From: Obrimoposthia wandeli
Lineage: Eukaryota
DNA length: 64,000 nucleotides
Direction: 5' to 3'
Assembly (NCBI GenBank): GCA_977020255.1
Contig: CDROCS010003124.1
Location: 124,001-188,000, forward strand
Positions 3,351-34,500 of the stretch are shown here, one piece after another. Below the pieces are notes generated by a model. It had not been told where the DNA came from, searched no databases, and was given only the letters and a program-made list of their open reading frames with translations. Positions within the stretch are counted from its first letter, which is position 1; the number at the start of each line of letters is the position of its first letter. Made by a program: the position numbers and the translations under genes.

Positions 3351-3424
3351 CTTATTCAAAAACTTATCTCTATTTACTTATATCTTCTTCAAAAACTTAT
3401 TCTCAATTTGCTTATATCTTCTTC

Positions 3425-3600
3425 TGAAACTTATTCTCAATTTATCTGAAACTTATTCTCAATTTATCTTAAACTTATTCTCAATTTGCTTATATTCTTC
3501 TGCTGAAACTTATTCTCAATTTATCTGAAACTTATTCTCAATTTGCTTATATTCTTCTGCTGAAACTTATTCTCAATTTGTCTGAAACTTATTCTCTGTG
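3425..3600. repeat. Short-unit tandem repeat (CTGAAACTTATTCTCAATTT core) in the leader of copy 1
   Basis: Core repeated about 6 times with variable linkers. Confidence 0.8.
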
Positions 3601-3622
3601 AATTCGCTGTGTCCGACGAGCT

Positions 3623-3640
3623 ATCCTCACTCGGGCACCA
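3623..3640 (-). promoter_or_regulatory. Primer-binding site of copy 1 (elongator tRNA-Met type), one C shorter than in copy 2
   Basis: Minus strand reads TGGTGCCCGAGTGAGGAT, 8 nt after the LTR end. Confidence 0.75.
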
Positions 3641-3648
3641 CTTTAATA

Positions 3649-5898
3649 TGTTGGGGTTTCTATACGAGACTTGTACAGATCCTCTTGTGTGCGGAGGGCC
3701 CCAACGTGAGTTCGAATAGAAGCAGGTCTTAAAGTTGGTCGTGGCCTACTTAGTGCTATGGTTGCCTATCTCAATTTCTTATCTGAAGGTGTTTGTTTTG
3801 ACGTCTCTTAATCTGAAGGGTTTAAAACAACGTTTTCTAATGTAGGAAATCGTTTATTGGTAACACACTAGACTAAAACACAACAATACGTTTACGTACG
3901 TATCTTCTAAAAAGTATAGTAAAAATTCCTAAGACTTCTGTAAGTCTCTACACAAGTGGGGATGAACCACGTATCGATTTTATGTTAAGGGTGATCGAGA
4001 TTTTGGTGTTGTTCCTCTAACTCGCGAATAAGCTCAAGTTATAGATTTTTCAAATCAATTTTAACTCTAATGTCAAACTTTACGTTTTTGAGGGTAAACT
4101 TTTAATTTTATGTCAATAAAGGTGGTGATTCAAACTTCCTTAAAAATGGGCAAATTGAAATTTTATCAATAAGCAATCTATCAACGATAGAACTTTACTT
4201 CTTTTAGGGTAAATTGAGTTTTATCTCAAAAATCAAACTTTATTAAATACGGAAAATTGCAACCTATCAACGATAGAATTCAGGGTAAATTGAGTTTTAT
4301 CTCAAAAATCAAACTTTATTAAATACGGAAAATTGCAATCTATCAACGATAGAATTCAGGGTAAATTGAGTTTTATCTCAAAAATCAAACTTTATTAAAT
4401 ACGGAAAATTAAAATCTATCAACGATAGAATTCAGGGTAAATTGAGTTTTATCTCAAAAATCAAACTTTATTAAATACGGAAAATTGCAATCTATCAACG
4501 ATAGAATTCAGGGTAAATTGAGTTTTATCTCAAAAATCAAACTTTATTAAATACGGAAAATTGCAATCTATCAACGATAGAATTCAGGGTAAATTGAGTT
4601 TTATCTCAAAAATCAAACTTTATTAAATACGGAAAATTGCAATCTATCAACGATAGAATTCAGGGTAAATTGAGTTTTATCTCAAAAATCAAACTTTATT
4701 AAATACGGAAAATTGCAATCTATCAACGATAGAATTCAGGGTAAATTGAGTTTTATCTCAAAAATCAAACTTTATTAAATACGGAAAATTGCAATCTATC
4801 AACGATAGAATTCAGGGTAAATTGAGTTTTATCTCAAAAATCAAACTTTATTAAATACGGAAAATTGCAATCTATCAACGATAGAATTCAGGGTAAATTG
4901 AGTTTTATCTCAAAAATCAAACTTTATTAAATACGGAAAATTGCAATCTATCAACGATAGAACTTATGTTATTACGTTCTCACCAATAGTGCTGGAGCCG
5001 TCTAATCCAAGCCTGAGTTCGGTCAAGATCCGTATCCGTTCCGGTTCTGGTCCGACTGCGATTCGGTCTCGTAGTTTCTCAGTTCCGCGGTTAGATGCGG
5101 CTCACGTTCTCGTTGGATTCCTTCCTTGGAATAAATAAATTTCTTCGTTCGCCAAATTTTACTTCGATTGCTTCCTAATGTAGACTAGTGAATCTACTCT
5201 TGTTGGGGATCGTGTGATTGTTTTCCCGTGGCACAGTCAATTGATTTGTGTCTGTCACTTCCTCGCAGCACTGTTAGTTGATTTGTGTCTCTCACTTTCC
5301 TCGCAGTACAGTTAATTGATTTCCCTTGTAGCGTGTAACGTCGCGGTTTTGATTCGGGAATTCCACTGATTTTTCTGCGGGTTTTTCTGTGACAGCTAAG
5401 TTGACTTTGCTCGTGTCACTGGCAATTTAATTTCTTCGTCTCCCCTGTTGAATTGGTGAGCAGACTTAAATAGTCTCGCTGCTTTCACCTGGATAGGACA
5501 GGCAAGTTGCACCTGGAGATAAGAGGTAATTAAAATCGACCGCACTAAATGTGCTTACCTTTGCTGACGTTGGCGAATTTTACGTTGGCTAAATTCTTCT
5601 CAATTTTCTTCTTAATTAGTTTTTCTTTTTTCGCTGACGTTGCTATTTTCTTCGTTAATTAATTTTTTCTGACAGTGCTATTTTTTTTGCACTTTTACTA
5701 GTTAATTTTAACCTTATATACAACACATTATACACGACCTTCGTGGTCCTCTTAATTTTTATTCCTAATTTAGTCCTAATAATTTAACTCGATTTTAAAA
5801 TTAAAATTTATTTAATTCTCAACCTTGCTTTCAAGGATTTCTACTTCACTATAAAACAATTATTTATTTCCAATTTTACTCAAAACCTAATCTTAACA
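3649..5898 (-). repeat. 5' LTR of copy 1 (~2250 bp)
   Basis: TGTTAAG...CCCCAACA termini. Homology with 9825-12314 at both ends. AATAAA on the minus strand at 3858-3853. The outer end coincides with the break in the piggyBac ORF. Confidence 0.8.
4207..4962. repeat. 76-bp tandem array, ~10 near-identical copies, inside the LTR of copy 1
   Basis: GGGTAAATTGAG starts at 4207, 4283, 4359, 4435, 4511, 4587, 4663, 4739, 4815 and 4891. Confidence 0.95.
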
Positions 5899-9722: not shown

Positions 9723-10080
9723 TTGAGAAGGAAGGTTGTAGATAACTAGTGTATAAAGAAATTGAGTGTGGAAAATGGAAAGTAGAAATCGAGCGTAGAA
9801 ATATAATGTAGAAACTAATTATAGTGTTAGGTTTAGGAATTGAGAAAAAATAAATTAATTAATCGAATTTATAGTGAAATAAGAATCTTTGAAAGCAAGT
9901 TTATAAATTAAATAAAATTAAATATTAGAATTAAATTGTTAAAATTAAAAGGTAAATTGAATATTAAGGACCACGAAGGTCGTGTGTAGTCCGCTGTATA
10001 TATAGGAGGTTGAATTACTATTAAGGGCCCCAAAAAAGTGATTAATTAAAAGAAGGAGAAACACAACGAAGAAGCTAAAA

Positions 10081-10289
10081 GAAATCAACCAGGAAGCCTC
10101 CAATAGAAGCCTCCATTAATCAGGACAATAGAGGAAATCAACCAGGAAGCCTCCAATAGAAGCCTCCATTAATCAGGACAATAGAGGAAATCAACCAGGA
10201 AACCTCCATTAGAAGCCTCCATTAATCAGGACAATAGAGGAAATCAACCAGGAAACCTCCATTAGAAGCCTCCATTAATCAGGAAAATA
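10081..10289. repeat. 53-bp tandem repeat, ~4 copies, in the LTR of copy 2
   Basis: GAAATCAACCAGGAA unit at 10081, 10134, 10187 and 10240. Confidence 0.9.
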
Positions 10290-10437
10290 TTAGCACTTAG
10301 CTAAGTACGCTGAAAACACTTAGCGTCGGGCCAACGCCGAGAAGGAGAATTCGCTGAACAACACGCCAGTGTCTGGAAAAACACTTAGCGTCGGAAGGTA
10401 AAATTATTATAAATAAAATAAAATTAACCGCTCGCTT

Positions 10438-10596
10438 CAGTACGATTACAGCCGTTAAATTGCAAGTAATTACCTAGAAGACAGAAATTTTTGGAAATTG
10501 CCAGCCGGATTGAAAACAGTACGATTATAGCCGTTAAATTGCAAGTCATTACCTAGAAGACAGAAATTGTTGGAAATTGCCAGCCGGATTGAAAAC
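10438..10596. repeat. 79-bp tandem duplication in the LTR of copy 2
   Basis: CAGTACGATT...GCCGGATTGAAAA at 10438 and 10517. Confidence 0.9.
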
Positions 10597-10885
10597 AACA
10601 AGGTAAGAGAGAGTCGAAACAATTCCACCAACATTGAAACAGATCGCGCAGATAATCAGTGTAGCCTCCAGCCAAGCCAAGCTCGCAGGACCACAACGCA
10701 GAATAACCCAGCTATTCTCTCAATCGGTAGAGCACGGGACCTTGTGCAGAACGACACTTAGGAGCAGCATAGCGAGTTCGTCGGAACAATTTGGAATTGT
10801 CTTCTTGGAATTGTTGCAGATTGGAAGGTGAGCCGACACAATTTAGAAGGAATTTTGAATCACTATTATTAAATTCAGTGATAAA

Positions 10886-11739
10886 TTGATAAAAGTTTTA
10901 CGAGTTGAATTGATAAAGTTATAACTGACATTGTTCTATATAGATAATTGATAAAAGTTTTACGAGTTGAATTGATAAAGTTATAACTGACATTGTTCTA
11001 TATAGATAATTGATAAAAGTTTTACGAGTTGAATTGATAAAGTTATAAACTGACATTGTTCTATATAAATAATTGATAAAAGTTTTACGAGTTGAATTGA
11101 TAAAGTTATAACTGACATTGTTCTATATAGATAATTGATAAAAGTTTTACGAGTTGAATTGATAAAGTTATAAACTGACATTGTTCTATATAAATAATTG
11201 ATAAAAGTTTTACGAGTTGAATTGATAAAGTTATAACCGACATTGTTCTATATAGATAATTGATAAAAGTTTTACGAGTTGAATTGATAAAGTTATAACC
11301 GACATTGTTCTATATAAATAATTGATAAAAGTTTTACGAGTTGAATTGATAAAGTTATAACTGACATTGTTCTATATAAATAATTGATAAAAGTTTTACG
11401 AGTTGAATTGATAAAGTTATAACCGACATTGTTTTATATAAATAATCGATAAAAGTTTTACGAGTTTGAATTGATAAAGTTATAACCGACATTGTTTTGT
11501 ATACATAATTGATAAAAGTTTTACGAGTTTGAATGGATAAAGTTATAACCGACATTGTTTTATATAAATAATCGATAAAAGTTTTACGAGTTTGAATTGA
11601 TAAAGTTATAACCGACATTGTTTTGTATACATAATTGATAAAAGTTTTACGAGTTTGAATGGATAAAGTTATAACCGACATTGTTTTATATAAATAATCG
11701 ATAAATGTTTTACGAGTTTGAATTGATAAAGTTATAACT
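10886..11739. repeat. 62-63-bp tandem array, ~13.7 copies, inside the LTR of copy 2
   Basis: 14 unit starts from 10886 to 11698. The distal units alternate between two variants. Confidence 0.95.
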
Positions 11740-12322
11740 CGCATTTTGATTATTGAACTAAGGGATAAAGTTCGCATTGAAAGATTTTTCATAACCATTT
11801 TTAAAGATAATTTTAGAGTGAGTACTCTACCAATAATTAACAAGCGACTGTGCCCACATTTTAGAGCAATAAGCTCTCTAAACTCATTTCGTAAATTTAG
11901 AACAATCAGCCCTCCAGAAGACTTACTAATTTGCCCCGTCACAGTTGAGAGTACAGACTCTAGCGACCAACCCACCCTAAAAATAAAATCGATACGTGGT
12001 TCATCCCCACTTGTGTAGAGACTTACAGAAGTCTTAGGAATTGTACTGTAACTTTTTAGAAATACGTACGTAAACGTATTGCTTGTGTTAGTCTAGTGTG
12101 TTAACAATAAACGATTTCCTACATTAGAAAGCATTGTTCTAAACCCTTCAGATTAAGAGACATCGGAAAACAAACACCTTCAGATAAGAATTGAGACAGG
12201 CAACTATAACATTAAGTAGGCCACAACCATCCTTAAGTCCTGCTTCTATAAGAACGCACGTTGGGGCCCTCCACATTCAAGAGGATCTATAAGTTTTATA
12301 TAGAAACCCCAACATATTAAAG

Positions 12323-12341
12323 TGGTGCCCCGAGTGAGGAT
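12323..12341 (+). promoter_or_regulatory. Primer-binding site complementary to the 3' end of elongator tRNA-Met
   Basis: TGGTGCCCCGAGTGAGGAT differs by one base from the complement of the vertebrate elongator tRNA-Met 3' end as I recall it (TGGTGCCCCGTGTGAGGAT). Confidence 0.8.
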
Positions 12342-12449
12342 AGCTCGTCGGACACAGCGACTTCACATAGAATATAAGCAAATTGAGAATAAGTTACAGA
12401 AGAAGAAGATATAAGCAAATTGAGATAAGTAATTTGATAAGTTTGAGAA

Positions 12450-12620
12450 ATCGAGTAGATTTGTTCCTCTAATTAAGTAATTTTGGTAAAATTGTGAATC
12501 GAGTAGATTTGTTCCTCGAATTAAGTAATTTTGGTAAAATTGTGAATCGAGTAGATTTGTTCCTCGAATTAAGTAAATTGAATAAAGTTTGTGAATCGAG
12601 TGGATTTGTTCCTCGAAGTA
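12450..12620. repeat. 48-49-bp tandem repeat, 4 copies, in the leader of copy 2
   Basis: ATCGAGTAGATTTGTTCCTC core at 12450, 12498, 12546 and 12595; homologous to the 49-mer of copy 1. Confidence 0.85.
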
Positions 12621-12957
12621 ATTAATTGAATAGGTTAAGTTGAGAGACGTGTCCTCGAACTAATTAAATTGATATAAGAAATCGTAAAATAAGAATTGTG
12701 AAATAAGATAAAGTAATAAGTAAATTGATATCGTAAACGAATACATAATTGATAAGACAACGAATAATAAAAACGGACCCGCGTTTAATACTAGAAGACA
12801 AAGTCAGATTCCCCAGGAGGAGATAAATAATAATAATTTTAACCGAATTGATCAAGTTCCCCAAACAGATAAAAAAGTAATAGAAGAAGCCAGAATCGAA
12901 GAAAACGTATCAGAAAAAGACGTTAATCAATCAGCAGTTTCAACCGACAGTTTTTAT

Positions 12958-14865
12958 TTGACTGAATTATTTGGTGACATAAACCCAGAAGAATTTGAAA
13001 TTGCCAATCCAGTAGCGGTTGAGGAAATTCAATGGATTAATATTGAAGAAATAGTTGAGGAGGATATAGCTGAAAATATGGCTCACGCAGGAGCTCAAGC
13101 AGATAATAACCCAGGAGGTGTTGTAGGAGAAATGAATGCAGAACAGTTGGCACTAGCCTTAAATGCGACGTTGAGACCCAACTTTTCGGGATCATTGCAG
13201 GTTACAAAGTTTAAAAGAGATGAGGAAAGTATTTGTGACTTCCTCGCAGAATATTCGAGTTGTGCAGATGTTCAAGGATGGAACGATAAAGAAAAATGTG
13301 TCTGAGTGCAGGCACACTTAACCGGATTAGCACTTGAAGTGTATAAACATTTGACAGAAGCAGAACGTTTAGACTGGCCAACGTTGGAAAATGCTTTTAT
13401 TGGAAAATTAGTATTGGGAGACTTAGCAAAAGTGAATAAGCGAATCATGAGGGAACGGAAACAGAAACATGACGAAGGCGTGAATGAATACGCGTATGTT
13501 TTGAGAACCTTGGCCGCAAGAGCGTACCCAAGAAGAATAATGAGAAATCAGGACGGTATTCCTGTAGCTCAAGAAGCACAAGTAGCGGAAAATAACCGGA
13601 ACCAAAATGAAATGGCAGAAGTTTTGTTAGACATATTCAGAGGAGGACTGAAAAAAGATATTAAAGTGTTATTAGCAGTATCGGACACAAATGATTTTGA
13701 TAACACCGTACGAAAGGCGAGAGAGATCGAGAAAAATATAAAAAATAACGCAGCAATAGCAATTTACGCAATGACCGCAGGTGATGACGATAAGACAAAG
13801 GTATTTGTGAATAAGACAGAACCGAGTAATTTTCAGAATCGAAATTATGGACAAAATAAGTTTGAAAAAGGAGATGAATCCAGTAACGGAAACAGAGATA
13901 ATTTCCGAAGTAGAAATCGAGATGATTCGAGAGGTAGAAATAATAGTGAGTCTTGGAACAGGAATCGAGATGATTCCAGAGGTAGAAATAGTAATGATTC
14001 GTGGAATAGAAATAGAGATGATTCCAGGAATAGATTTAATAGAGATAATTCAGGAAATCGCCAACATTGGAAAGGAGACGATAGGAATTATAATGCAAAC
14101 ATAGGAGAGCGAAATGACTCTCGATTTGGAAATAATACAGGAAGCAGTGACGACAGATTCAATAATCGAGGAAGTGGTTTTGAATCGAATTTCCGAAGAA
14201 ATGATTTTAGAGGACGCTATGACAACAGACAGAATAGTCGTCGAGTACAGTTCGAAGATGAACAAAATAAGATAGATATTCGAGGGAGAATAATGTGTTA
14301 TACGTGCAAACAAATGGGTCACTACTCGAGAGATTGTACGAGAAGTAAAGAATTCGGAACTAACAGATTTGGAAATAATAATTTCGGTAATAATAATTTT
14401 GGAAATAATTATAGAGGATATAATTCACCCCCGCCATGGAATAGAGGTGGTGGATATACTCCGCAGCCATGGAGACCGAATAATCAGTATACAGATAGAC
14501 AACAGTCACCAGGTAGATACAATAACTATGCAGACAGACAGCAAGGAGCTGAGAGATACAATAATTACGTAGGTCAGCAAGGAGCTGAGAGATATAATAA
14601 TTCCGGTAGATATAATAATAATAATGTTGACAAGACAAATAGTCGTGAGAGTTCGCCGAAACCGAATGGAAATTTTAGTTACGTAAACGATGACAGTGAT
14701 AGGAATCGCGAGACCGAACTTCGACGCGAAATAGATTTCGAAGATAGTGATAGTAAATTTGAACGAATGTTGGGAATAATTAAAGATTCACCACATACAA
14801 AGATGGCGAATTCATCTACGTTGTCAAAACAAGAAAAAAAAGTCTGCACTCGAGAGAAGAGATGA
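12958..14865 (+). pseudogene. gag: gag of copy 2 (TGA at 13303-13305; A-run frameshift at 14834-14841)
   Basis: Capsid-like KFKRDEESICDFL...GWNDKEKCV*VQAHLTGLALEVY and RKQKHDEGVNEYAYVLRTLA; knuckle CYTCKQMGHYSRDC at 14296-14337. Confidence 0.85.
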
Positions 14866-16340
14866 ATGATTTAATGAATCAAATACTAGAAGCGTATGAG
14901 ACACCAATAGAGAAAACGTGTTACGCACAACCTATGACTGATCACATAGAAGCAGCAAGAAATGCTACGAGTATGGAACATGTGAAAAAGATAATTAGTG
15001 AAGCTAAAGAGACGTTGAATCAACCGTTAGATGAAACGAGCGAAGCTCCAGAAGTTTTGGCAAAACTACAAACAATTAAAGTGCACAGATTGGAAGAAGT
15101 GCGAGCAGAATTGGTTAAACATAGTCATGATTACTTGGGTTACAAAGAAGTATCACGAGGATTATTGAAAGGATATGGCCGTTACGTACAGAGATCAAAC
15201 CAAAAAGGAACGATGAAAATTTCACTTCGATTAAATTCCGGACAGATTATGCATGAAAAACTTAACGTATACCAAACAATGAAAACTATTCAAAAAAAGT
15301 TGGCCGAAAAACTTGAAATTGATGGAATGAATATGTTGTTCCATTATAAAGGAAGATCACTAGATGATGAAGACGTACCAATCGAGTGCGGATATCCAAT
15401 AGGAAACGAATTAGAGGAAAAAATTGATGTTATTACTGTAGAACGTCAAGAGTTAGTAGATAATGAAGGATTAAATGAGATATTAAACTCTGCGTTAGAA
15501 ATGATAAAAACGCCTATAGAAATGTTAGACAGTTCAAGCGAAAGCGGAAATAATGATGTAGCTGAAGCTTGGAACAAGACATCCACACCAGAACCGTACG
15601 TAGCTGAATTACAAGACGTGGAACTAGAAAATAAGTTGACGACTCCGGTGGTCGAAGTACCACCAGAACAAGAGATAATTCAAACCGGACAAGATGAAGT
15701 CACGGATATAGCCAACCAAGTGAGACAAAACGAAAACGAAACCCAACAAATTGGAGAAGATGAAATCTTCGAGATTGTAGATTTAGATTCACCAATTTGG
15801 CATGCTGCATACAGAGATAGACAAGTAGAGCAGATGATGCGACAAAACGAAGAGATTGGCCATGTAGAAGGACCAAGTCAAGAGATACAGTATAATGGTA
15901 AATCATATGATCCAGGAGAGAATCAAACTGAGTATCAGTATTTTCGAAGAGGACCTGGAAGACCTAGAAAGGACGGAAGTATATTACGAAATGTTCTAAC
16001 TGCACCACAGACTGATGAGGAGAGACATCTAAGCATTGGACAGCGAGCAACGTCATTAGAGCAGTATAGTACAGAGCGAAATGAAGATATCAGAGGTGAT
16101 ATGAATTCGGAAGCTCCAAGTAGTAAAGATATACTTACGGGAATTCTCAGGCAAGTGAAGCCGAAGTTGTTCAAAATGTACAAAGATGAAACAACCGATA
16201 TAACAGACAATTTGACTAAAGCAGTTAGATCACAAATGTCTACCGTGAATGACTGCGAATCATGGATACCATGTATCAATAGACAGATTTTACGATGGCG
16301 AAGTTTTAGCGAGATTATGTGGAAACCAGACTACAAATAA
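14862..16340 (+). CDS. Post-gag polyprotein segment: SUMO/ubiquitin-like domain (15213-15449), acidic linker, AT-hook (15945-15971), N-half of a Bcl-2-like domain
   Basis: MKISLRLNSG...LFHYKGRSLDDEDVPIECG...KIDV has a Ubl pattern. RRGPGRPRK is an AT-hook consensus. Contiguous with gag in copy 1. Confidence 0.65.
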   Translation: MNDLMNQILEAYETPIEKTCYAQPMTDHIEAARNATSMEHVKKIISEAKETLNQPLDETSEAPEVLAKLQTIKVHRLEEVRAELVKHSHDYLGYKEVSRGLLKGYGRYVQRSNQKGTMKISLRLNSGQIMHEKLNVYQTMKTIQKKLAEKLEIDGMNMLFHYKGRSLDDEDVPIECGYPIGNELEEKIDVITVERQELVDNEGLNEILNSALEMIKTPIEMLDSSSESGNNDVAEAWNKTSTPEPYVAELQDVELENKLTTPVVEVPPEQEIIQTGQDEVTDIANQVRQNENETQQIGEDEIFEIVDLDSPIWHAAYRDRQVEQMMRQNEEIGHVEGPSQEIQYNGKSYDPGENQTEYQYFRRGPGRPRKDGSILRNVLTAPQTDEERHLSIGQRATSLEQYSTERNEDIRGDMNSEAPSSKDILTGILRQVKPKLFKMYKDETTDITDNLTKAVRSQMSTVNDCESWIPCINRQILRWRSFSEIMWKPDYK

Positions 16341-16503
16341 AAAGTTAATTACAGCGATCACATATCTATGTTTCCAATTGACGGAACGAACGAGCCAACC
16401 TCACGAAGTCAAACAAGGAATAAATGAAGCAATGTATTTGATCGAGAATGTATTGCAGAAACGAATCGACGAAAACGGAGGTTGGGCAAAATTAAGAGAC
16501 TAC
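16131..16503 (+). pseudogene. Bcl-2-like domain split by a frameshift near 16340
   Basis: BH2-like KRIDENGGWAKLRDY (ENGGW at 16471-16485). BH3-like ILRQV...MYKDETTDITDNL. Reconstructed BH1-like EIMWKPDYK.KLITAITY. Confidence 0.55.
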
Positions 16504-16611
16504 GCTAAAACCATTGTAGAAATGAATGAAGACGATGAGGAACAATGTCATAAGAATCGTCAAAGAGAAAATAAACAATACCGTCCGAAAGAAATAAATA
16601 ATCAACCAAAT

Positions 16612-18800
16612 ATGTCCACAACGATGATGATGATGATGATGATGATAGTAATGTTTATGGGAATGCAACAGGCATCAGGATTAGTAGCATACGACTGTAG
16701 CGTACCAAAGATGGGACAAAAGTATTCACTGCTTGATAGCGAATATTGTCCCGAATCACAACCATCAAAATTAGAAGTTAAAGGTGTGGAAAACTACTTT
16801 GTGTATCAGGATGTTGATAAAATACAAGTAGAAGTGAAAGAATGTTCAGTCCATTCAAGTTATCACGAATTCTATTGTGGCCATAGAAGTTTTATGTCGT
16901 AAATCACACCTACCACACCGTACAAACCACATGAGGTTTTTCCGAGAGATTGCGAAGACGCATTTCGAACAGGAACAATAGAAATAGACAAGAATTACAA
17001 ACCTGATGTAAAAGTTGGGGTGAGACGATACGAAACAGTCACGAGAGTAGGACAACGATGGCCTGATGGATCTTGTGACGGAGGAACAAAAACGTGCGTG
17101 GAACCAAAGTAACAGAGTTAGTAATGGACGTAACTTACCAGATCGAATTAAAAACATGGACCGCCAATTTTGATAAAAAGACACAACGAATGATGAAGTA
17201 TCCGGAATGTAGAATGACAGATGCATCTTGTTTTACAGGTGAATCCACAATTGTGTATCACGTGAATCCAAAACAATGTTCTTTAGTATTTTTGAAAGAG
17301 ATTAGCTTTAATAAAATAAAAGGGTTCCTGTATAATAAAGATGGAGAAGGGTTCCTGTATAATAAAGTTGGAGAAGGATTTCATAATGAAACAAGACCAA
17401 TTCCTATGACGGCGACACCTACACTGTTAATGGCAACATCAACAGAAGAAGGATTGATATTTATTAAAAAGAGAAATAAAGCGCGATGCGGAATGACTGT
17501 TAGTACTACAAACTATCATGGAATAGTTTTGTTCAGAGAATTAATAGCATTGGCAGAAACCAATCTAAAACCTAGAGATATGCAGCTACACACGTATTTT
17601 AATAATAAAATTGATTTTTATTATCATAAAGGATTGATGCAGATGGAACAGTTATATCGGATGATGATCGAGAGAGATTCCCAGCTAAACAAAGAGATCG
17701 TAAGAACAAAGTTAGCATTATCTATTACGAATCCAGACATGGTAGCACCATTATTACCTTTAGATGAAGGAGTATTTGCTAAAACCATGGGAGAAGTATT
17801 GTATACTTACAAGTGTAATAAAGTAGAAGTACAGTTGAGAACAACAAACCGATGTACGAGTGAATTGGCAGTAACGAATAATTTAAAAGAACTTTTTGTT
17901 GAACCAATCACGAGAATGATACTTCCAAAAGACACTCCAACCAAAGAAATCAGCTGCTCTAATATAATGGCACCTGAATATTAGATGACGAATGATCTAT
18001 GGATAACTCTACCTGACCGAAAGCCAACGAAAACTTCAGAGATGATAAAAATGACGAATCTTAAAGGAAAAATGAAATTCGAAGCGGTAGAAAATATGGA
18101 AAATGCAGGTTTGTACAATGAAAAAGACTTAAAAGCGGCCTGGAACGAAATAATGTTTCCAGTAAAAAGGGCCAGAGTACTTACGGAGATGGTACATCGA
18201 GCATTACCGCCAGAAGCTAGATATGAGAATTTTGATATGTTATTATCGCCAAGTCATTTCAAGGAAGCAGCACATCAGACACTTAGAAAGATGTGGGGGA
18301 AATTCCTTGTTTTAGGACAATTATTTCCAGGTATCATAGGTATTTATGTTATAATTAAATTTGTGCAGTTAATTATAACCCAGGTGTTGTCTACGTATAG
18401 TTTATACAGGATAACTGGAATCACCTGGCAACTTATAATTGAATGTTTTCCATTTTTAGCGAAATATCTAATGCACCATCATCACGAGAACGAGTTGCGA
18501 GCCCTCAAGAAGGAGCAACATCAAACGAGAACCATGATACGAGAATCAAGAAACTATCGAGACGACAACGACGATGATAACGATAGCCCAGGAGAATATG
18601 CAAAGATACCAGGAAAACCAAAGATTCCGTTACCAGACAAGGAGGAAGTGACGCTAAACCTATATCCAATGAAGGAACTAAAGGAAGAGAAGGAAAAGTT
18701 CAAAAGAGGCATTTTAATGATAAGATGGCCTAAAGTGAACTACAGTGAGATTCCACAAGCAGAGGAAAAAGACAAAAAGATAATTCCAGAAGAATTCTAA
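16612..18800 (+). pseudogene. env: Chuvirus-type (class III, gB-like) envelope glycoprotein with stops and one frameshift
   Basis: Hydrophobic leader, then LVAYDCS, YCGHRSFMS, GSCDGG, YFNNKIDFYY, GEVLYTYKCNKVEV...CTSELAV...FVEPITRMI and C-terminal TM MWGKFLVLGQLFPGIIGIYVIIKFVQLII (~18291-18380). This matches the layout of chuvirus glycoproteins as I recall it. Stops at 16900 and 17982, frameshift near 17095. Confidence 0.75.
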
Positions 18801-19270
18801 AGTCTAGGATATCCAATGAGAATCCAAATGCTCCACCACAAGTAGCAGTAACACTAAACGGAAGAGAATATCTTGCCGAAGTTGATACTGGATCTGCAGT
18901 ATCAGTACTGAGTAAAGAAATCTTGTCATCAAAAGAATTAAGAGAAGTATGCCCAAAAAAACAGACATTTGTTAACGTAAATGGTACAGATGTAGTGTCA
19001 GAAGGAACACTGAAATGTTCGTTAAATATCAATGGAAGAGCATTGCAGTTAAATGCTAGAATATTCACAGATTGTGGTAGTCCAGTCATGATTGGGATGG
19101 ATGTAATACGGATGTTTGAAGGAATAATTATATTACCAAACAACAAGAGTTTTAAGAACGACAGTTCAGTGAGAGAGATAAAAATGTTGAGAGGACCTAT
19201 AGTCGAAAAGGAAAAATACACTATGTTCCGTATGGGAAATCCGTATAAGACAAAAAACAGGAAGCGCTAG
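18800..19270 (+). CDS. Retropepsin-type aspartic protease 1
   Basis: The frame of ORF 18923..19270 is open from 18749: VAVTLNGREYLAEVDTGSAVSVL (DTG 18884-18892)...VNVNG...VMIGMDVI. Confidence 0.8.
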   Translation, partial: KSRISNENPNAPPQVAVTLNGREYLAEVDTGSAVSVLSKEILSSKELREVCPKKQTFVNVNGTDVVSEGTLKCSLNINGRALQLNARIFTDCGSPVMIGMDVIRMFEGIIILPNNKSFKNDSSVREIKMLRGPIVEKEKYTMFRMGNPYKTKNRKR

Positions 19271-19317
19271 TAAAGTCGATACTTCACTACAAAGATGTAA
19301 ACTACGGACCACAAGCT

Positions 19318-20820
19318 ATGACGAGGAGGAAAATAACATACGTGAATCTGTCAGAAAAAGATCCTTTGAGAATCGAGAAAAATAGACGAAGATCACTAGA
19401 ACAGTACTATTCAAAAGAAATGTCACGTAAAATGGCGAGAACAGGTTTACAAATGTTAAACACGACAAATAGTTATGGTTCTGAGGAAGTAGTACGATGC
19501 GTATGGTGTAGAGTAAAGTTTAGGAAGTGGGAAAACAATGATAACCCAATGAAACGTCATAAAAGAGATGCACCAAATTGTCCATTTCTCTTGAAACTGA
19601 AAACTTCAAACGTACCAGAAATCCAAATGGGAAAAGCACCCGATTTCGATAACAGTGACGAGATTCCAGAAGGAAAATCAGCTCTAATAGTAGGCAAAGT
19701 AATAACAAATAGCCGAATTGAAGACATATTCGAAGTAATGCGAGAAGTGAACGAATGTGACGAACAATATCGAGAAGTAACTTTCGAAGATCCAAGACTT
19801 AAAAAATTGGCAAAAAAGGGACTTTTTGCTATAAAAAAGGATGGTAAAGACTTAATTAAATATCACAAGTGTAAAAAAGAACGAATTATCGACAGATATA
19901 CTCTCGAGTTACCTAAGAAAACTTTACACCATGAATTCTGCGAATTTTGTATTTTTAAAAACAAAATAAAGCAAAAAGAACAGAAAACCGAATGTATAAT
20001 CGAATACCAAATCACACGGAAAGAGATTTTGGCTCAACAAGACACACTGGTAGTGTCATTCGTGAGAAGACTATATCCAAAAGAAGCAGAAAGAATCAGA
20101 GATTTGGTAGAATTAAAAATAAAAACTACGCGAAACGGATACGGATCAATTTTTGAATTACTAAAAGATAAAGATGATAGTACAATCGAAACAAAAGAGA
20201 AAGAGTACATAAACAAACTAGAATACGCACTAGAAGATCCGGAATGCGCAGTTTGCATGGTCAACAAAATAGAAGTTGCCTTTTTACCATGTGGACATGT
20301 AAGAACATGTCGGAGATGTGCGAAGGAAATGGTATCATGCCCGATTTGTAGAAGGATAATAGATCGACAAGTGAGAAATATTAGATTTCACTATCCAAAC
20401 AAAGGAAGTGGACCGACAGAGTTTAATAATTCGATAAATACAATATACCATATGGGAAATATAAATGGAGCACAGCGACCAGCAGCTATCATTAGAGTAA
20501 ATAATTTAAGAGTAAAAGCCTTAATTGATACAGGAGCTGTAGCTTCGATAGTAAGTGAAGATTGTTTGACAGAGGAACAGAAACGAACAATGGCAGAACC
20601 AGATGAATTCTTGGTATCGGTCAATGGAGACCCTGTAAAAGTGACGGGAATATTACCATATACATTTATAATTAGACGTAATACGATCACTATACCAGTA
20701 AGAATCATGAAAGAATGTCCTGAACCTACAATTTTAGGAATGGATGTACTATCACAACTCAAAGGGATAAGTATTGATTTACAAGATCCAAGATTGAAGG
20801 ATAGCACATCAAACAGATAA
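19318..20820 (+). CDS. IAP-like module (BIR, degenerate BIR, RING) fused in-frame to aspartic protease 2
   Basis: BIR CVWC-x16-H-x6-C with exact spacing. RING CAVC...FLPCGH...CRRCA...CPICR at 20245-20352. ALIDTGAVASIV (DTG 20527) and ILGMDVL. Confidence 0.88.
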   Translation: MTRRKITYVNLSEKDPLRIEKNRRRSLEQYYSKEMSRKMARTGLQMLNTTNSYGSEEVVRCVWCRVKFRKWENNDNPMKRHKRDAPNCPFLLKLKTSNVPEIQMGKAPDFDNSDEIPEGKSALIVGKVITNSRIEDIFEVMREVNECDEQYREVTFEDPRLKKLAKKGLFAIKKDGKDLIKYHKCKKERIIDRYTLELPKKTLHHEFCEFCIFKNKIKQKEQKTECIIEYQITRKEILAQQDTLVVSFVRRLYPKEAERIRDLVELKIKTTRNGYGSIFELLKDKDDSTIETKEKEYINKLEYALEDPECAVCMVNKIEVAFLPCGHVRTCRRCAKEMVSCPICRRIIDRQVRNIRFHYPNKGSGPTEFNNSINTIYHMGNINGAQRPAAIIRVNNLRVKALIDTGAVASIVSEDCLTEEQKRTMAEPDEFLVSVNGDPVKVTGILPYTFIIRRNTITIPVRIMKECPEPTILGMDVLSQLKGISIDLQDPRLKDSTSNR

Positions 20821-22716
20821 ATAAACCAAATTGATGTAATTATAGAAAATCCTATAAAAATCGGTAAAAGATCACAATTTCTCATTCAAGGTCACACATT
20901 ATCAGAAGATAAAGGACCAGTTGTGTTCGAACCATCACGGGATTTCATAGAGAAATACGAATTACCAGTTGTAAGTACAGTATGTCTGATTGAAAATCAC
21001 AAAATACCAGTTAGACTGATGAATACAACCAACAATGACATCCTATTATACAGAGGAATGAGGTTGGGAAAGATAGCACAGATGGAGAATCCCACTATAT
21101 GTGCTATGAAACTCGATATAGACACGAATGATTACGAAGAAATAGTAATCCAATCAGAAAGACTGACAACTAGAGAAAAGAAACAATTACTTGATCTAAT
21201 ACATAAATTTCCGAAAGTAATTGCAAAAAATCCATATGACATAGGAGAAACGCCTGTCATAAAACACACAATACCGCTGACAGAAGACAAAGTAGTCAGA
21301 AGAAGACCATATCGAGTACCATTACAGTTACAAGATGAAGTAAAAAGTCAGATTGAAGACATGTCTAAAACAGGAGTAATTAGACCGAGTTTTTCACCAT
21401 TCTCAGCACCTGTAGTGTTAGTAAAAAAGAAGGATGGAAAAATGAGATTCTGTATAGATTTCAGAGAACTGAACAAGATCACCAGAAAAGACGTGTATCC
21501 ATTACCTAGAATTGAAGAGATGCTTGATAAATTAGGTAATTCAAATTATTTTACGACATTGGATTTGCAGAGTGGATACTGGCAAATCGAGATAGAGGAA
21601 GAGGATAAACACAAAACAGCCTTTTCCTGCGGAGATGGACTATACGAATGCAAAAAAATGCTATTCGGACTGACAGGAGCGCCAGCAACATTTCAGCGTT
21701 GCAAGAATTTTGTGCTCGCATCGTGTGCAAACACGATGGTTTATATCGATGACATAATAATATTTTCGAAAACGTTCGAAGAACATTTAAAAAATCTTGA
21801 AGTTGTATTTAAAAGACTGGAAAACGCTAAATTAAAAGTTAAACCTACAAAATGCGAATGGGCTAAAGAGCGAGTAACATTTTTAGGACATATAGTATCG
21901 AAAGAAGGCATCCGACCAGATCCAGCAAAGATCGAGAAAGTAAAAGCGCATTTAGCGCCAAAGACTGTTAAAGAAATACAGAGTTTTTTAGGCCTTGCGA
22001 ACTATTATAGACGATTTGTTGAACATTTTTCAGATATAGCAACACCATTGAGAAAGTTGACGAGGAAAGATGAGAAGTTCATATGGGGAAAGGAAGCACA
22101 ACAAGTGTTTGAACATTTAAAAGAAAGACTGATAAAAGCACCAATATTAGCGTTTCCAGATATAAACCGACAATTCATACTCATGACAGATGCAAGTAAC
22201 TATGCTGTAGGAGCAGTATTGGGACAAGAAGATGACGAAGGAAGAGAACACGTCATCGCGTATGCGAGTAGAGGATTAAACAGAGCCGAAAGAGGATACT
22301 CTGTTATCGAAAAAGAATGTCTAGCCATAGTATATTCATGTAGACAATACAGACACTACTTGTTAGAACAAAAAGTATTCCTGTATAAAGATCACAAACC
22401 ACTACAGTTCTAGTATAAACATAGAGATGAGATGAGTAGATTAAACAGATGGTTTCTGACATTGACCGAATTCGATCTAGAAATCCGTTATAGAACCAGA
22501 AAGTCGAATGGCAACGCAGATTGTTTGTTGAGGTTAACAAATGTAGACGAGAAAGGAAACATAATTCCAGAAGAAGAACAAGATGAAACCAACGACCAAA
22601 AAGGAGAAGCAAATCTACTAACGATTTTGCTGAAGACGGGTAAAATAGACAAAGAGATCATCAAGGAGCAGAAAGAAGATGAAGACCTGAGTCTAATCAA
22701 AGAAAAGAACTGTTAG
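20821..22716 (+). pseudogene. pol: Reverse transcriptase and RNase H (Gypsy type); in-frame TAA at 20818 and TAG at 22411
   Basis: YIDD at 21742-21753; DASNYAVGAVL, EKECLAIV and DHKPL RNase H motifs. Confidence 0.92.
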
Positions 22717-22772
22717 TGAAAGGAGATCTAAACGATGAAATGACGAAGAAATACTCGATAAAATAAGGAATC

Positions 22773-24020
22773 TTGTATATTGTCAACAATGTCGGAAAAA
22801 TAGTAGTAGTAATTCCGAAGTCATTGAAAACATCTGTGATGATCCAGTACCACGATGGAACACTAGGAGGACATCTGTCAGGACGAAAGACAATAGCCAG
22901 AATCAAAGAGAAGTACCATTGGGATGGTATGGAAGACGACATAAAACAATGGTGTAAACAATGTAAAGTATGTTTAACCAGAAGAGACACCGGAACTCGT
23001 AGTAAAGTTCCACTGAAACCAATGCCAGTTCCTTTGGCACCAATGGAATTCACAGCGATGGATATATTTGGACCATTGAGAGAATCAAGTAAAGGAAACA
23101 AGTACGTCATAGTATTTACGGACTACATGACGAGATGGGTAGAAGCATATCCCATGCAAAACCAGAAGGCTGAGACAATAGCGCAGATCTTAGTGGAAGA
23201 GATAATATTTCGATACGGAGTGCCTAGAAAGTTGTTAACGGATCAAGGTAAGAACTTCACCGGAGAAGTAATAAAAGCAGTATCGAAGATATTCGGAATC
23301 ATGAAGTTACAAACTTCACCATATCAGCTACAAACCGATGGACTAGTAGAAAGGTTTAATAAAACTTTATGTATGATGGTACAATCCTATTGCTCAGACA
23401 AGCAAGAGGATTGGAATAAATATTTACCTTCATGTTTATATGCTTACAGGAATTCAGTTCGAGAGGCGACGGGTCACACACCATTCTATCTGATGTATCT
23501 CAGACAGAACAATATGCCAATGGATCTGGAGTGGACCGAACCAACGTCTCAGTATCTAGAAACTGAACAATACATTGTCGTTATGAAAGAAAGATTACAA
23601 GATGCTTGGACTAAAGCAGGATTGAAACTAAAATTCAATTAAGAAGGTTACAAGGAACAATATGACAAAAAGGCAAAACCACATGAATTTAGAGTCGGAG
23701 ATCAAGTGATGATATTTTATCCAGTCATCGAACCAGGTCTATCATTTAAACTTCATAGACCATACAAAGGACCATACAAGGTGATACAGACAACCTCAAC
23801 GAACTTGAAAGTAATCAACGAGGAAAATCGGAACAAGGAACCGATGATTGTACATGCAAATCGATGTAAATTAGTACCAAATAAAGATAACGCGTCACGA
23901 TATGAGTTAAGATCACAGAAATTGAAGACGAATACCAATACGATTAAACTTACACGAATGGTAAGTGATCGAAACTACATAAATACGATGACAAGTAGTA
24001 GCGATGAAAAACCAGCGTGA
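22773..24020 (+). pseudogene. pol: Integrase (HHCC, DDE, GPY/F); in-frame TAA at 23640
   Basis: HDGTLGGH...CKQC, MDIFGP, TDQGKNF, DGLVERFN, HRPYKGPYKV. Confidence 0.92.
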
Positions 24021-24026
24021 ATTGGC

Positions 24027-24719
24027 ATGCTCAGAATGAAGCACCAAGAGGAAAAAGAAGTAATTCGACACATCGCACCACAAGAGATATTGGAAGAAGA
24101 CGAAGAGATCATAGTCGTTTTAGAAAGAACACAACCAACAGACGTGGCGAAAGAAGTCATTGTGAAAGATGCACTGACAAACGAATTTCTATGCGAACTT
24201 AGAGTGTCATACTTCGACGGAAATACACTAGTTGCAGAACTGCATCAAAACTCCAATGTGTTTACAACTGAGAAAGTGATAATCGAAATCACATTAAAAC
24301 CAAACATAGTTGCATGGCAGAACTATGACAGTACTGAAGCAGGACTAGCCAGTCAGGAAGAAAAAGAACCGGCCGGTGGTCACATACTTCATGGTACACC
24401 AAAAAGACTCAAACAAGAATACTACGATGTAATAATGGTATTACGTAATTCACATGGGAGAAGAGACATAATGAGAGTTCAGTTAATCGACGCTGACACT
24501 GAAAAGATAATCTGTCAGATGGACACCAAATACTTTGACGGAAAGACCATTGTATGTAGTATACCGGAATCTCACCAATTAAACACAGATCAAACGGAAG
24601 TATCTGTAAGGTTGAGCGTAATAGAAGGATTTCATTCGCCAACCCAACCGGAAATAACAAACAATAAAATCATTAAAACAACGGCAGAGTTACGCATTGA
24701 CATCGGATACTGGAAGTAG
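24027..24719 (+). CDS. Unidentified 3' accessory ORF with an internally duplicated domain
   Basis: 230 aa, in frame with the preceding ORF across one TGA. Two repeats share a CxxxxxYFDGxTxV core. Confidence 0.55.
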   Translation: MLRMKHQEEKEVIRHIAPQEILEEDEEIIVVLERTQPTDVAKEVIVKDALTNEFLCELRVSYFDGNTLVAELHQNSNVFTTEKVIIEITLKPNIVAWQNYDSTEAGLASQEEKEPAGGHILHGTPKRLKQEYYDVIMVLRNSHGRRDIMRVQLIDADTEKIICQMDTKYFDGKTIVCSIPESHQLNTDQTEVSVRLSVIEGFHSPTQPEITNNKIIKTTAELRIDIGYWK

Positions 24720-24739
24720 GAAGCTAAAAATAAACCACA

Positions 24740-26060
24740 AAGAATCAATATGATCCGAGAACAAGTGACAACCTCAATCCAACCAAAAATATCATGCTGA
24801 AATAGTATCATCCGCGCCAACTTGTCGGCAGTCATAGCATCTACCAGATCAGGTAAAGTATCCACAGTTTCTGAAACTCAAAGTAGTCTAAAGCAATTCC
24901 ACTGGGCACAAATATGTTCTATGACTTTACTTGCGATTCGTATTTTAATATTCTTTCTTCCTGCAGCTGAATATTTGTAAACCTGGAAAAGTTAGTTTTT
25001 GTCGATATTCAAGAACCCTACTCAAATGACATGGAGTTCTTCCATTTTGTCAATATTATCTTTCAGAGTAGTCTCGATTAGATTCTGACATTTGTCCATT
25101 ACTTTGCTGTAACTATTATTTGACTCATATTACTGTCAAAGGACACTTTGATTTCCACATAATGGATGTAGATTCTACCTTTTACCGTAATATCTGGTTT
25201 TGCTCACTGAATATAGCCACTTTCATTCATTATCATAGTAGTTTCCTTCATAGCAATAGTATCTCCGGCAAGTTTAAATAAGATATATACTTCTCGAACT
25301 ACCGTATCGTGTCTCTGTACTTTCCAGTAATGCATTTTATAGCATCCTACTATAGCATGAGATACAGTCTCAGGTGATGGTGTGTTGTTATTATTTAAAC
25401 CCATATCAGCAACAGTTAACTTCACGTTTACTGTTTACGGTACGGAGGCACATAAATAAAACTTCCTGAAATTGTTTAATTAACTTATTCATAAACATTT
25501 TTATCATAGATACATGAATCGATAACTTTTAAAAAACTAATAACCTTCACATTCTTTATTATCACCTTGGTAAAAATAAATTAACACTTTATAAAAAGAG
25601 GACCTATATTCCCCATTTGATCAGACATGTTTAATCTACGGCTGGTATTCTATTTAACGTACTTTATCACCCAATCACATGCTTACTTTCATTATTCAGC
25701 ATTGACAGAATAACAATGAGCAAATTATGAAACAGCTCAAAAGACCCAATAGACACGTTATGTAGCATTCTAACTATTAGCTTACTTCCCACCCTAATCT
25801 TTGCTACTCTCACCTTCCCATCCGGTCTCTAAATTTTCCACTCTTCATAATTTCTATTTACCTCTATCCTGGTGCTTCTCTATTAACCACACTACAGGTA
25901 TAGGTTTCCTGAAGGGAATTCTTAGTATTTCACATTTGCTTAGTCTAAATCTCAATTGGATACTGGCTGCAGTATCCAACATCGTCTTTAGTAAATATTT
26001 ATCCTCGGCGAGTAAGGCTAGTTCATCCGCATATATATGTACAACAAAGTTTGAATCCAG
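24740..26060 (-). mobile_element. Degenerate non-LTR retrotransposon with restriction-like endonuclease (R4/NeSL-like), 3' fragment
   Basis: RT remnant HIYADELALLAED...LRFRLSKC (~26040-25920). Zinc-finger remnant PETVSHAIVGC...QRHDTVV. Endonuclease remnant KPDITV...VEIKVSFDSN. Confidence 0.65.
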
Positions 26061-27857: not shown

Positions 27858-28250
27858 TTAATAGAAGTATCCCATAATTTTTCCTCCTAGATGTTTCTTT
27901 CTAGCCTCAAGATGGTCCATAATACCCGCAGACGTGGTGACAACAATGAAACCGAACTGACGGGAAGGAAGTAATCTAGATGACCAGTTCTCCAACTTCT
28001 TGACGCTAGTATCAAATCTGGGGCTGATGACAGCACACTTGTTGATTCTTCCGTTCAATTCAACAACAATTTTGCCAGATCTGTGGTCATCAACAATGGT
28101 GAATTCTTTGATATAACCATGCTTCTGCATAACACCCAAAAACTGGATAATCACTTTCGAGCTAGGTCTGATAAGAACCTGTTGCTTACCTCTCTTCTCA
28201 GCATTATAAATACCATTTAAGGCATCAGCCAAAACATTCATACGGACCAT
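27858..28250 (-). CDS. RPS15A: 40S ribosomal protein S15a (uS8), intact, intronless, 130 aa
   Basis: [11 protein letters not shown]...[18 protein letters not shown]...[27 protein letters not shown]...[21 protein letters not shown]...GGKIMGYFY. Length and termini match the family; true start is the ATG at 28250. Confidence 0.96.
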
Positions 28251-29474: not shown

Positions 29475-29679
29475 TGTTAGGTAAATAATTATAATTATAA
29501 TCTCACAATTAACTAATTAATTGAATGTTTGTACCTGTATGATTGCATAACTAATTGTCTCCATATTATTGCACAACTACATGCATTTCCCCACAGAACG
29601 CTTTACTTAAAAGATCACACAGAACGAGAACGGCATATTTGGTGTTTAATATAGTTTGAAGTATTATACAGACTTAACA
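29475..29679 (+). repeat. Probable short LTR (TGTTAGG...CTTAACA)
   Basis: The end is defined by AACA directly followed by a PBS. The start is inferred only from the inverted-terminus match. Confidence 0.45.
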
Positions 29680-30759
29680 TGGCGACCACGCAACAAGAAT
29701 CAAGGAAGCTGATTCCACAACCAAAAGAATATACAGAATCAGAAGAAGTTGAAGAGTTCCTGCCTAAGATCAGGTCATATTTTGAAATGATATCACTGGA
29801 TGTCAGCCAAAGAAATATTCTGATTAGAGCATTTATTCCCGAGAAATATCGTGAAAAATATGACAAGAAGAATTATGAAGATAGGCTTAAAGAAGCATTT
29901 GACAAGAAGCCGGATTTAGAAGTAGACCTATTCAATGCCTTGAAATACAAGAAAGGTAATGATTCCGTTGACACCTTCATTCAGCGTATCGAAAATAATG
30001 GGGAGAATGTAATGCGACACAAGATTACGGCCTCCAAATTAACAGAATTCTTACTAAAATTCTGTCTCGATGCTGAGTCGATGTTAGAAGAAATGAACCG
30101 ATTCGAACTCACTGGTGACATTTTGAAGATGAAACCAAATCCAAGCAACGAAGAAATGGAGACTGAACAAAAAAGACCAACAAAATTTATCAAGGATATG
30201 ATGAAGAAATTGGAAGAAAAAAAAAATAAAGTCAATAATTGAAAAACCGATATTTTCTTTAAATAATCGAACTTATGCTGGAATTGTGAAAAATGGAAGA
30301 CCTGCTCATCGAAATCCAATGAACATGAAGCAAAATCAAGGAGCAGCTCAGATAAGGTTTGAAAATACATAGAAAAACGAAAACTATGAGCGATGACAAT
30401 CTTATTACTGCAGTGAGGTTGGACATATTAGACGAGAATGTCTTCACAATCATTGTTCATTCTGCGCACGAAATGGACATATGATCAACCAATGCTATCG
30501 AAAACTTTATCAAGGTAATAAAGGATACATGCAAAACTATGGTTATCAGCGAGATCAGCAAGTACCAAATGGCAGTTTTGGACAAGAGCGAAGATACCAG
30601 CGAGATTGTGTTCCTGTCCATCAGCTAAGAAATCAGCAGAGATACCAAGGAACTGACCAGATAAAGAAGCCAGTTGCTGTCATCGATGACGACTACATGA
30701 CTGTGGAAAAACCGAATAACAGCCAGGCGGAAAATGAGTTGGCTCCATCAAACGGGTAA
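29679..30759 (+). pseudogene. gag: gag-like gene of a second LTR element with two zinc knuckles; no pol seen
   Basis: PQPKEYTESEEVEEFL and KYKKGNDSVDTF, then after frameshifts YYCSEVGHIRREC and CSFCARNGHMINQC (~30400-30500). Confidence 0.7.
29680..29690 (+). promoter_or_regulatory. Primer-binding site, tRNA-Arg(TCG) type
   Basis: TGGCGACCACG matches the recalled complement TGGCGACCACGAAGGG over 11 nt. Confidence 0.6.
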
Positions 30760-33639: not shown

Positions 33640-34500
33640 GATTTAGAGTAGACAGTTCAGACTATTTGGTTTCAATGGAAAATTTCGGAATGTAGTGTCG
33701 GGGTCGAGAAATCAGTGTTATTTTAATGAATGCAAATAAATGTTCAAGTTATGCGATGGAGTTCAACTTTTTAATGTTAATGTCAAAATTGAAACAAACA
33801 ATGGTAGCAGATAGCGAGGTTAGTACCGGTCAAATCGCTGAAGATGGAAAAGTTGCTGAAATGAATCTATCAACAAAAGTAGTAGATATCGTGTTCAATG
33901 TTCCTAATGCTGCTTCTGATAGCGAACGTCGAGCGGTTCTAGATGCTGCATAAATTGCGAATCTTAACTGTATAAAACTTATCAATGATACAACTGCATC
34001 AGCAGTTGCATATGGTCTCTACTATCCGAATTTCCTAGAACCTAAGCAAAAATGGAGACAAGTAGCATTTATTGACATGGGATACTCAACATTGCAAGCA
34101 AATATTGTTGCTTTTAACAAAGGTAAAATGTGAGTAGTTGCAAGTACGTGTGCAGATGTGGGTGGAAGATACTTTGACCGTGTTATTTATGAGCAGGCAA
34201 AGATCAACTTTGAGACCATTTTCAAGTTGGATGTATTTGATGGAAAGAAACCTTCTATTCGTCTTTCTCAGGAATGTGAAAACCTTAAAAAATTGATAAG
34301 TGCAAATTTCAATGAGATCCCAATGAATATTGAATGTTTCATGAATGATGTTGATTTTCATATGCGAACGAAGCGAGATCATTTCGAGAATCTTTCACCC
34401 TCTCTATTACAGGAGGTTAAGGAAACTCTTTCGAAAATATTCGAAGAAGCTAAAATAAGTATATATGATATACAATCTGTGGAAGTTTTGGTTGGTGGTT
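33640..34500 (+). pseudogene. HSPA4: HSP110/HSPA4-family (Hsp70 superfamily) pseudogene fragment, no introns seen
   Basis: SERRAVLDAA*IANLNCIKLINDTTASAVAYG...FIDMGYS...AFNKGKM*V...GGRYFD...RLSQECENLKKLISAN...IECFMNDVD...VEVLVGG is collinear with the HSPA4 ATPase domain; two nonsense codons. Confidence 0.85.

Follow-up and report, generated by a model that had tools for sequence, protein, structure and literature searches.

The closest described system is planarian Burro/GYPSM1, in which a single ORF of 4,873–5,140 aa encodes Gag, a ubiquitin-like domain, a BCL2-like domain, an in-frame mononegavirus-like env, a BIR and pol; the sections of the review drawn on here propose that this cargo interferes with host apoptosis, and treat a role in apoptosis or ubiquitination as a possibility awaiting confirmation (PMC6431247). 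IAP and Bcl2 homologs have been noted in polintons, or 'adintoviruses', in the sections used of PMC8502044. Both IAPs in polintons and a BIR carried by a giant polyprotein of gypsy type are thus already known from these sources, and the arrangement described below is less unusual than a first-pass annotation of the same DNA had rated it. The literature covered gave no account of a BIR-BIR-UBA-RING module between twin proteases, of selection on such a module or of a link to Maverick IAPs; a RING, a second protease or a phosphatase may already appear in the original Burro descriptions, in figures (review Fig. 2A, adintovirus Figs S1-S2) or in supplements. The sections used of PMC11410931, PMC13238120 and PMC8532177 hold nothing on element domains. 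Here we analyzed a 64,000-nt stretch of Obrimoposthia wandeli DNA, hereafter the window, in which an IAP module lies between two proteases of a Burro-like retrotransposon.

A decayed copy of an env-bearing LTR element

Positions 9825–24820 of the window constitute one decayed, 3'-truncated copy of an env-bearing gypsy-type LTR element, with the order LTR, primer-site-like motif, gag, a weak ubiquitin-like match, env, protease 1, IAP module, protease 2, RT, RNase H and integrase. Its features outside the IAP module were the following.

9825–12314, plus strand: 5' LTR, TG...CA, with internal tandem arrays, matching the 3' LTR of another copy
12323–12340, plus strand: primer-binding-site-like TGG motif, by sequence, 8 nt 3' of the LTR
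12724–14862, plus strand: gag region with CCHC knuckle (zf-CCHC E 5e-6), interrupted by a private stop
15228–15392, plus strand: ubiquitin-like domain, weak (Pfam ubiquitin E 0.005, under cut-off)
16100–16500, bounds approximate, plus strand: possible BCL2-like domain, weak and here split by a frameshift (Pfam Bcl-2 E 0.068 in a natural copy, under cut-off)
16630–18572, plus strand: env, Monjiviricetes-type fusion glycoprotein (PF24664), in three pieces in the window copy
18836–19138, plus strand: protease 1, DTG at 18884 (Pfam gag-asp_proteas E 3e-7)
20473–20781, plus strand: protease 2, DTG at 20527 (LIDTG; retroviral protease Pfam E 2e-7)
21421–22407, plus strand: reverse transcriptase and RNase H (RVT_1 E 3e-36, RT_RNaseH_2 E 9e-36)
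22812–23870, plus strand: integrase, with H2C2, core and C-terminal parts (Pfam)
24021–24820, plus strand: first part of the cargo that follows integrase, the copy being cut off at 24820

Measured on four LTR-to-LTR copies, the full-length element is 20.5–23.6 kb long, with LTR pairs 93–99% alike and with 4-bp target duplications readable in three of the four. A search for a tRNA matching the primer-binding-site-like motif found none. The gag stop of the window copy, at 13303, is sense in 11/11 copies covering the position. The weak ubiquitin-like and BCL2-like matches precede env, in the order seen in Burro, and a PDB search with the BCL2-like segment gave no match. In one natural gag-to-protease frame env matched PF24664 with E 1e-87, and in other copies it stands in frame between gag and pol. 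A constrained 138-codon segment between PR and RT, at the place of the dUTPase-like domain of Burro, matched nothing in Pfam or PDB when a dUTPase was looked for.

For 19 of 20 other copies the alignment stops at 24820, which is the truncation point of the window copy. In other copies the frame runs on past this point and takes in a dual-specificity phosphatase (Pfam E 6e-41) whose HCxxGxSR motif is intact and whose closest solved structures are MAPK phosphatases, DUSP10 being the closest, and thereafter a second phosphatase-like domain without catalytic motif and hydrophobic segments. The first phosphatase domain lies after the integrase at L054:6196-6579 and is not in the window copy. Repeated units of ~110 residues follow the integrase (window 24021–24820; L054:4699-5520), for which an Atlas lead as IPT/TIG-like, at 0.88, fell below the trust level, and an 847-bp stretch of this 3' cargo occurs as three tandem units (L054:7492-9998, copy on C2397).

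Elsewhere in the window, positions 1–3990 hold an inverted second copy of the same LTR family, 93–96% identical and head to head with the first, spanning the LTR end, the primer site and gag to the ubiquitin-like region. Tandem arrays of 53, 79, 62–63 and 48 nt occupy the LTR and leader (10023–12641), with similar arrays of 76 and 49 nt at 3011–5110. The minus strand at 27858–28250 carries a ribosomal protein S15a ORF without introns, whose identity to database proteins reaches 78% at most. By eye, we also noted a second gag-like/CCHC fragment (29655–30759), an Hsp70-family-like fragment (34134–34550), a BEL-type integrase-like fragment (37543–38019) and an unannotated 299-aa coiled ORF (41332–42231).

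The element resembles Burro, as known from its published description, in being of gypsy type with PR-RT-RH-IN order, long TG...CA LTRs and very high copy number, and in its one ORF of ~5,000 aa with a gag-CCHC, a mononegavirus-type env set in frame between gag and pol, and a BIR. It differs from Burro in size (20.5–23.6 kb against >30 kb), and the parts of the Burro review seen list a BIR but not an IAP RING, a UBA, a second protease or a phosphatase (PMC6431247). MATH/TRAF, Smc and ankyrin domains gave no Pfam match at E<=1 in three natural frames spanning nearly the whole ORF, a result that holds at the sensitivity of Pfam and for the main ORF as distinct from the upstream accessory ORFs. 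We therefore class the element as Burro-like, not as a Burro member.

The 500-codon ORF as a fragment of one giant frame

The frame containing the IAP module is stop-free from 19249 to 20817, with an ATG at 19318, and is followed by a stop.

20818–20820, plus strand: TAA private to the window copy, with the in-frame RT ORF beyond it

All 20 other copies, fetched with flanks, have a sense codon at this position, and 19 of the 20 lack a frameshift that the window copy carries at ~19247; the further in-frame stops that interrupt gag, env, RNase H and integrase in the window copy are likewise private. Because the TAA and the frameshift that bound the ORF are both private lesions, the ORF is a fragment and not a gene. 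A stand-alone 500-codon gene was ruled out on these grounds, as was programmed read-through at the TAA. The first-pass annotation had correctly placed a single TAA before an RT in frame with it, but the special status it implied for that stop is mistaken. Its statement that the ORF has no internal lesions holds for stops and frameshifts; it does not extend to 10 residues within 19318–20817 that are carried by at most one of the 20 other copies, the first BIR2 zinc ligand among them. The complete IAP module that it described as fused to the protease is present, but a likely UBA had been missed and the fused ORF is a piece of a much larger frame.

A common frame in other copies takes in env, protease 1, the IAP module, protease 2 and RT; of two natural frames that overlap, one extends from gag to RT (3,070 aa) and one from protease 1 to beyond integrase (2,680 aa). 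The longest open frame among the best 150 of 21,202 candidates was 5,478 aa, which sets the polyprotein at ~5,500 residues. Of the first 30 copies, 7 have protease 1, BIR1 and protease 2 together in an open frame and 11 have RING, protease 2 and RT so; breaks are scattered through the others. In a DNA search with the 1,503-base ORF, 40/40 scored matches (the best 40 of 5,211 candidates) were 97–100% alike over essentially the full length, and in a search with protease 2 all 150 scored matches (the best 150 of 21,202 candidates) were protein-identical. These candidate totals are not equal to copy numbers, and thousands of element copies are likely.

Domain structure of the IAP module

Between the two intact proteases, the module has the order BIR1, variant BIR2, likely UBA and RING.

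19375–19590, plus strand: BIR1, canonical zinc spacing (exact CX2CX16HX6C) and type I-like groove (Pfam BIR E 8e-12)
19753–19950, plus strand: BIR2 variant, CX2CX18HX3C in other copies, first zinc ligand lost in the window copy
20035–20169, plus strand: likely UBA, aligning to the cIAP UBA region (sequence E 0.004)
20239–20391, plus strand: IAP-type C3HC4 RING with RNIRFH tail (zf-C3HC4_3 E 3e-12)

The initial annotation was borne out with regard to the exact spacing of the first BIR, and to a RING that runs uninterrupted, within one stop-free frame, into the LIDTG protease 2. Because the E values of BIR, RING and protease are all strong in one frame, the observation lies far beyond chance. 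The predicted model of BIR1 matched the BIR of BIRC6 (Z 12.0, rmsd 2.1, 86 aligned), and its fold also matched DIAP1 BIR1 and XIAP BIR2.

The second BIR had been called degenerate. It seemed more so than it is because its first zinc ligand, kept in 41/42 copies, is missing from the window copy. The spacing CX2CX18-19HX3C recurs in natural copies and five relatives. All 8 segments compared with a profile of database BIRs matched it (E 2e-6 to 0.01), the profile–profile probability was 61% against 2% for reversed controls, and the secondary structure of the predicted model is BIR-like. BIR2 is a conserved variant, not a decayed domain.

A UBA domain is likely between BIR2 and RING. Its model (residues 238–290) matched the XIAP UBA 2kna with Z 3.5, rmsd 2.0 and 52 aligned residues, a match that is not independent of the cellular IAPs on whose alignment the model was built, and Pfam gave no match to the segment. 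A single-sequence fold of BIR2-UBA reached a pLDDT of 42, too low for use, and an Atlas search for BIR2-UBA returned nothing at >=0.9. The best PDB match of the RING was cIAP1, and each of its 8 zinc ligands is kept in 41–42 of 42 copies.

Presence and selection across copies

All four module domains were present in 19/20 copies picked by their RNase H, the twentieth being truncated inside RT. Selection was analyzed over 67 copies, which were best BLAST hits and not a random sample, in two subfamilies whose identity to the reference copy is ~96% and 88%; variants were counted as shared when found in at least 4 copies and as private when seen once. Private variants gave dN/dS values of 0.89–1.57 across domains, thus about 1, as expected post-insertion. 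Shared variants gave 0.54 [0.36–0.81] for BIR1, the fastest-changing domain of the module, 0.15 [0.06–0.34] for BIR2, 0.24 [0.09–0.65] for UBA and 0.28 [0.09–0.67] for RING (bootstrap intervals), compared with 0.34 for protease 1, 0.14 for protease 2 and 0.04 for RT. A second method pointed in the same direction, and for RING the between-subfamily comparison taken by itself was not significant (p 0.25). Because recurrent mutation and duplicated copies push the values towards 1, this test is conservative. The IAP module is under purifying selection acting on the element, as are both proteases, which retain DTG and are likewise constrained.

A host IAP fragment, captured and riding in frame as a functionless, neutral passenger, would agree with the shared dN/dS of 0.94 in the linker before BIR1, and with the only moderate constraint on BIR1 itself. 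It is at odds with the value for BIR2, UBA and RING taken together (0.21 [0.12–0.33] for shared against 1.05 for private variants), with zinc ligands kept in both subfamilies and with an architecture conserved with proteins at ~30% identity, and we consider it largely refuted and highly improbable. BIR1, with 28/77 variable sites against 4/260 in RT, may be undergoing either relaxation or diversifying selection.

The BIR1 groove and caspase binding

According to the portion used of PMC6360406, type II BIRs have an IBM groove that follows the rule E/Q319, W/H323 and G306, and type I BIRs bind adaptors, not caspases. At these XIAP positions BIR1 of the element departs from the rule: 319 is Arg in 42/42 copies and Leu in 20/23 of the second subfamily, 323 is Asp/Glu or, across copies, also Lys, and 306 is Lys or Asn. 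The argument concerns residue positions only, and the rule, which 218/420 database BIRs follow, is not an absolute test. As BIR1 is without type II groove residues, direct binding to caspases appears unlikely, and the 'anti-caspase' activity first ascribed to the module is not upheld in the direct sense, Lys306, Arg319 and Asp/Glu323 being the pattern of type I BIRs as given in the part seen of PMC6360406.

That BIR1 would nonetheless bind caspases or IAP antagonists, as in DIAP1, XIAP and baculoviral IAP3, is suggested by its fold matches to BIRs of the first two, by retention of Trp310 and the acidic residue at 314, by true host caspases with QACRG and by the BIR-RING proteins that many animal DNA viruses encode according to our database comparison. 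The groove residues speak against it, as do the Maverick relatives, most of which are without the acidic 314, and the changed zinc spacing of BIR2; overall, we hold a direct caspase inhibitor to be quite improbable.

Comparison with host genes and kinship with Maverick IAPs

A genome-wide BIR search yielded one survivin-like and one BIRC6-like locus, neither of which matches the module by tblastn, while the remaining 28 fetched loci included BIR-RING repeat families whose ORFs stand alone and end in the same RVRN-x-x-FH tail. With a cellular IAP as query, 12/12 loci fetched were element copies. No gene that could be the source of a recent capture from the host turned up among the best 102–150 of >12,000 candidates, a search that intron-split genes could escape. 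The first-pass annotation had named three observations that would count against it: absence of the module from most copies, near-identity to a host gene and neutral evolution. None of the three was made, near-identity being judged on the host-like loci just described.

Two of the IAP repeat families, A and B, sit in 15–16 kb elements with TIRs of ~550–600 bp, carrying rve plus chromo and Pox_A32 by Pfam and PolB by motif match only; they are Mavericks/Polintons. By resemblance, we take further ORFs of both families to be capsids, and one ORF of family A presumably encodes a TATA-binding protein-like product. Family A (L121-L128) also has a phosphatase-like ORF without catalytic motif beside its IAP, and the BIR copies of family B (L084-L087) are spaced at ~7.15 kb on one contig. 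A common origin of the phosphatases was unsupported, the Maverick DSP-like ORFs being 33% identical and without catalytic motif.

The Maverick IAPs share with the module the order BIR-(variant BIR)-UBA-like-RING and an RVRN(I/V)(R/K)FH tail, but they are stand-alone, stop-terminated ORFs of 301–341 aa, and those of family B are without BIR2. The module shares the BIR fold, the IAP RING and the likely UBA with cIAP1, XIAP, DIAP1 and baculoviral IAP3, and differs from them in being embedded in a polyprotein, in its BIR1 without type II groove residues and in its altered BIR2 zinc spacing. Phylogenetic comparison with host and baculoviral IAPs, as proposed along with the initial annotation, placed the module outside the cellular and baculoviral IAPs and in one clade with both Maverick families and database proteins P0005, P0006, P0008 and P0034. 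In these trees, in which long branches were flagged, support for the clade was 100/100 at full length against 14 outgroups, including three viral-contig IAPs, and SH-aLRT 96 in a quick RING-only tree of 62 columns against 142 others. A search for the genomic context of P0005 and P0006 found none. As to the direction of transfer, none of three constrained trees was rejected (p-AU 0.145–0.287). Because the LTR module and the Maverick IAPs are only 34–37% identical, any exchange between them must be old.

Related polyproteins and the inter-protease interval

Three giant polyproteins from ENA contigs, P0014, P0019 and P0102, have at least two proteases and are without BIR or RING. Env of P0014 and P0019 is 35–41% identical to that of the window element, pol of P0019 and P0102 47–49%, and their proteases are similarly repeated, P0014 having four protease domains after env; their inserts between proteases are other than IAP, with paired Cys/His finger-like motifs in that interval of P0019. 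Because these relatives have repeated proteases without an IAP, the duplication of the proteases seems to predate the IAP, which occupies an inter-protease slot.

Gypsy-element proteases process their polyproteins. In the window element a motif of the form [IV]xM[LIFT]R, defined after seeing the sequence, occurs near domain borders 5 times against 0.33 expected, compared with 2 against 0.25 expected in P0014 and none in P0019 or P0102. One of the five lies upstream of the IAP module.

19178–19192, plus strand: candidate processing motif, among the five [IV]xM[LIFT]R near domain borders

This border motif follows protease 1, a looser Met motif lies ahead of protease 2, and the site after RING (IYHM) misfits the strict form. 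Proteolytic release of the module would fit the two flanking proteases and the recurring motif.

DISCUSSION

We read the module as IAP cargo that selection preserves in a giant Burro-like retrotransposon, and regard it as probable, though not strongly so, that it is cut free by the element's proteases and then acts as a ubiquitin ligase whose targets are host proteins of cell death or immune signalling, not as a direct caspase binder. The whole element would be translated as one polyprotein, from which its proteases would cut at the Met-centred border motifs to free a piece of ~420 residues. The freed RING would dimerise and act as an E3 on host proteins of death or immune signalling, and the element would benefit through survival of the cell expressing it, alongside the possible BCL2-like domain and the phosphatase. 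Cellular IAP RINGs end near the C-terminus; here the RING is not C-terminal, and ~20 residues would remain past its tail after the proposed cleavage.

The ligase might instead act in cis on element proteins, removing surplus Pol, timing processing or supplying ubiquitin for particle release. From a single frame equal amounts of Gag, Env and Pol arise, the RING adjoins protease 2 and a weak ubiquitin-like match lies in the same polyprotein, all of which would suit such a role. The module is missing from relatives of the same organisation, however, the same IAP clade stands alone in Mavericks, which have no such polyprotein, and the variability of BIR1 relative to RT fits an outside target better, so that we judge a cis role to be rather unlikely.

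Going beyond the preferred reading of a host-directed ligase, we offer only tentatively a wider set of proposals: that a Maverick and an enveloped LTR retroelement of the same animal lineage exchanged an IAP gene, in one direction or the other; that the interval between the proteases is an exchangeable cargo slot; that BCL2-like domain, IAP ligase and MAPK-type phosphatase form a complete anti-death kit in one polyprotein; that BIR1 is diversifying against a host target; and that Burro-like elements, should the host prove to be other than a planarian, would represent a wider, undescribed virus-like lineage.

The many copies of the element permit a direct evolutionary test of the apoptosis/ubiquitination cargo, one that the IAP module passes, and the module is a small, natural and assayable domain set. 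Its relationship to the Maverick IAPs of this genome suggests that genes have passed between a retroelement and a DNA-virus-like transposon, or that there is a common mobile pool of IAP genes, and the twin-protease slot suggests a route by which giant single-ORF elements acquire accessory functions.
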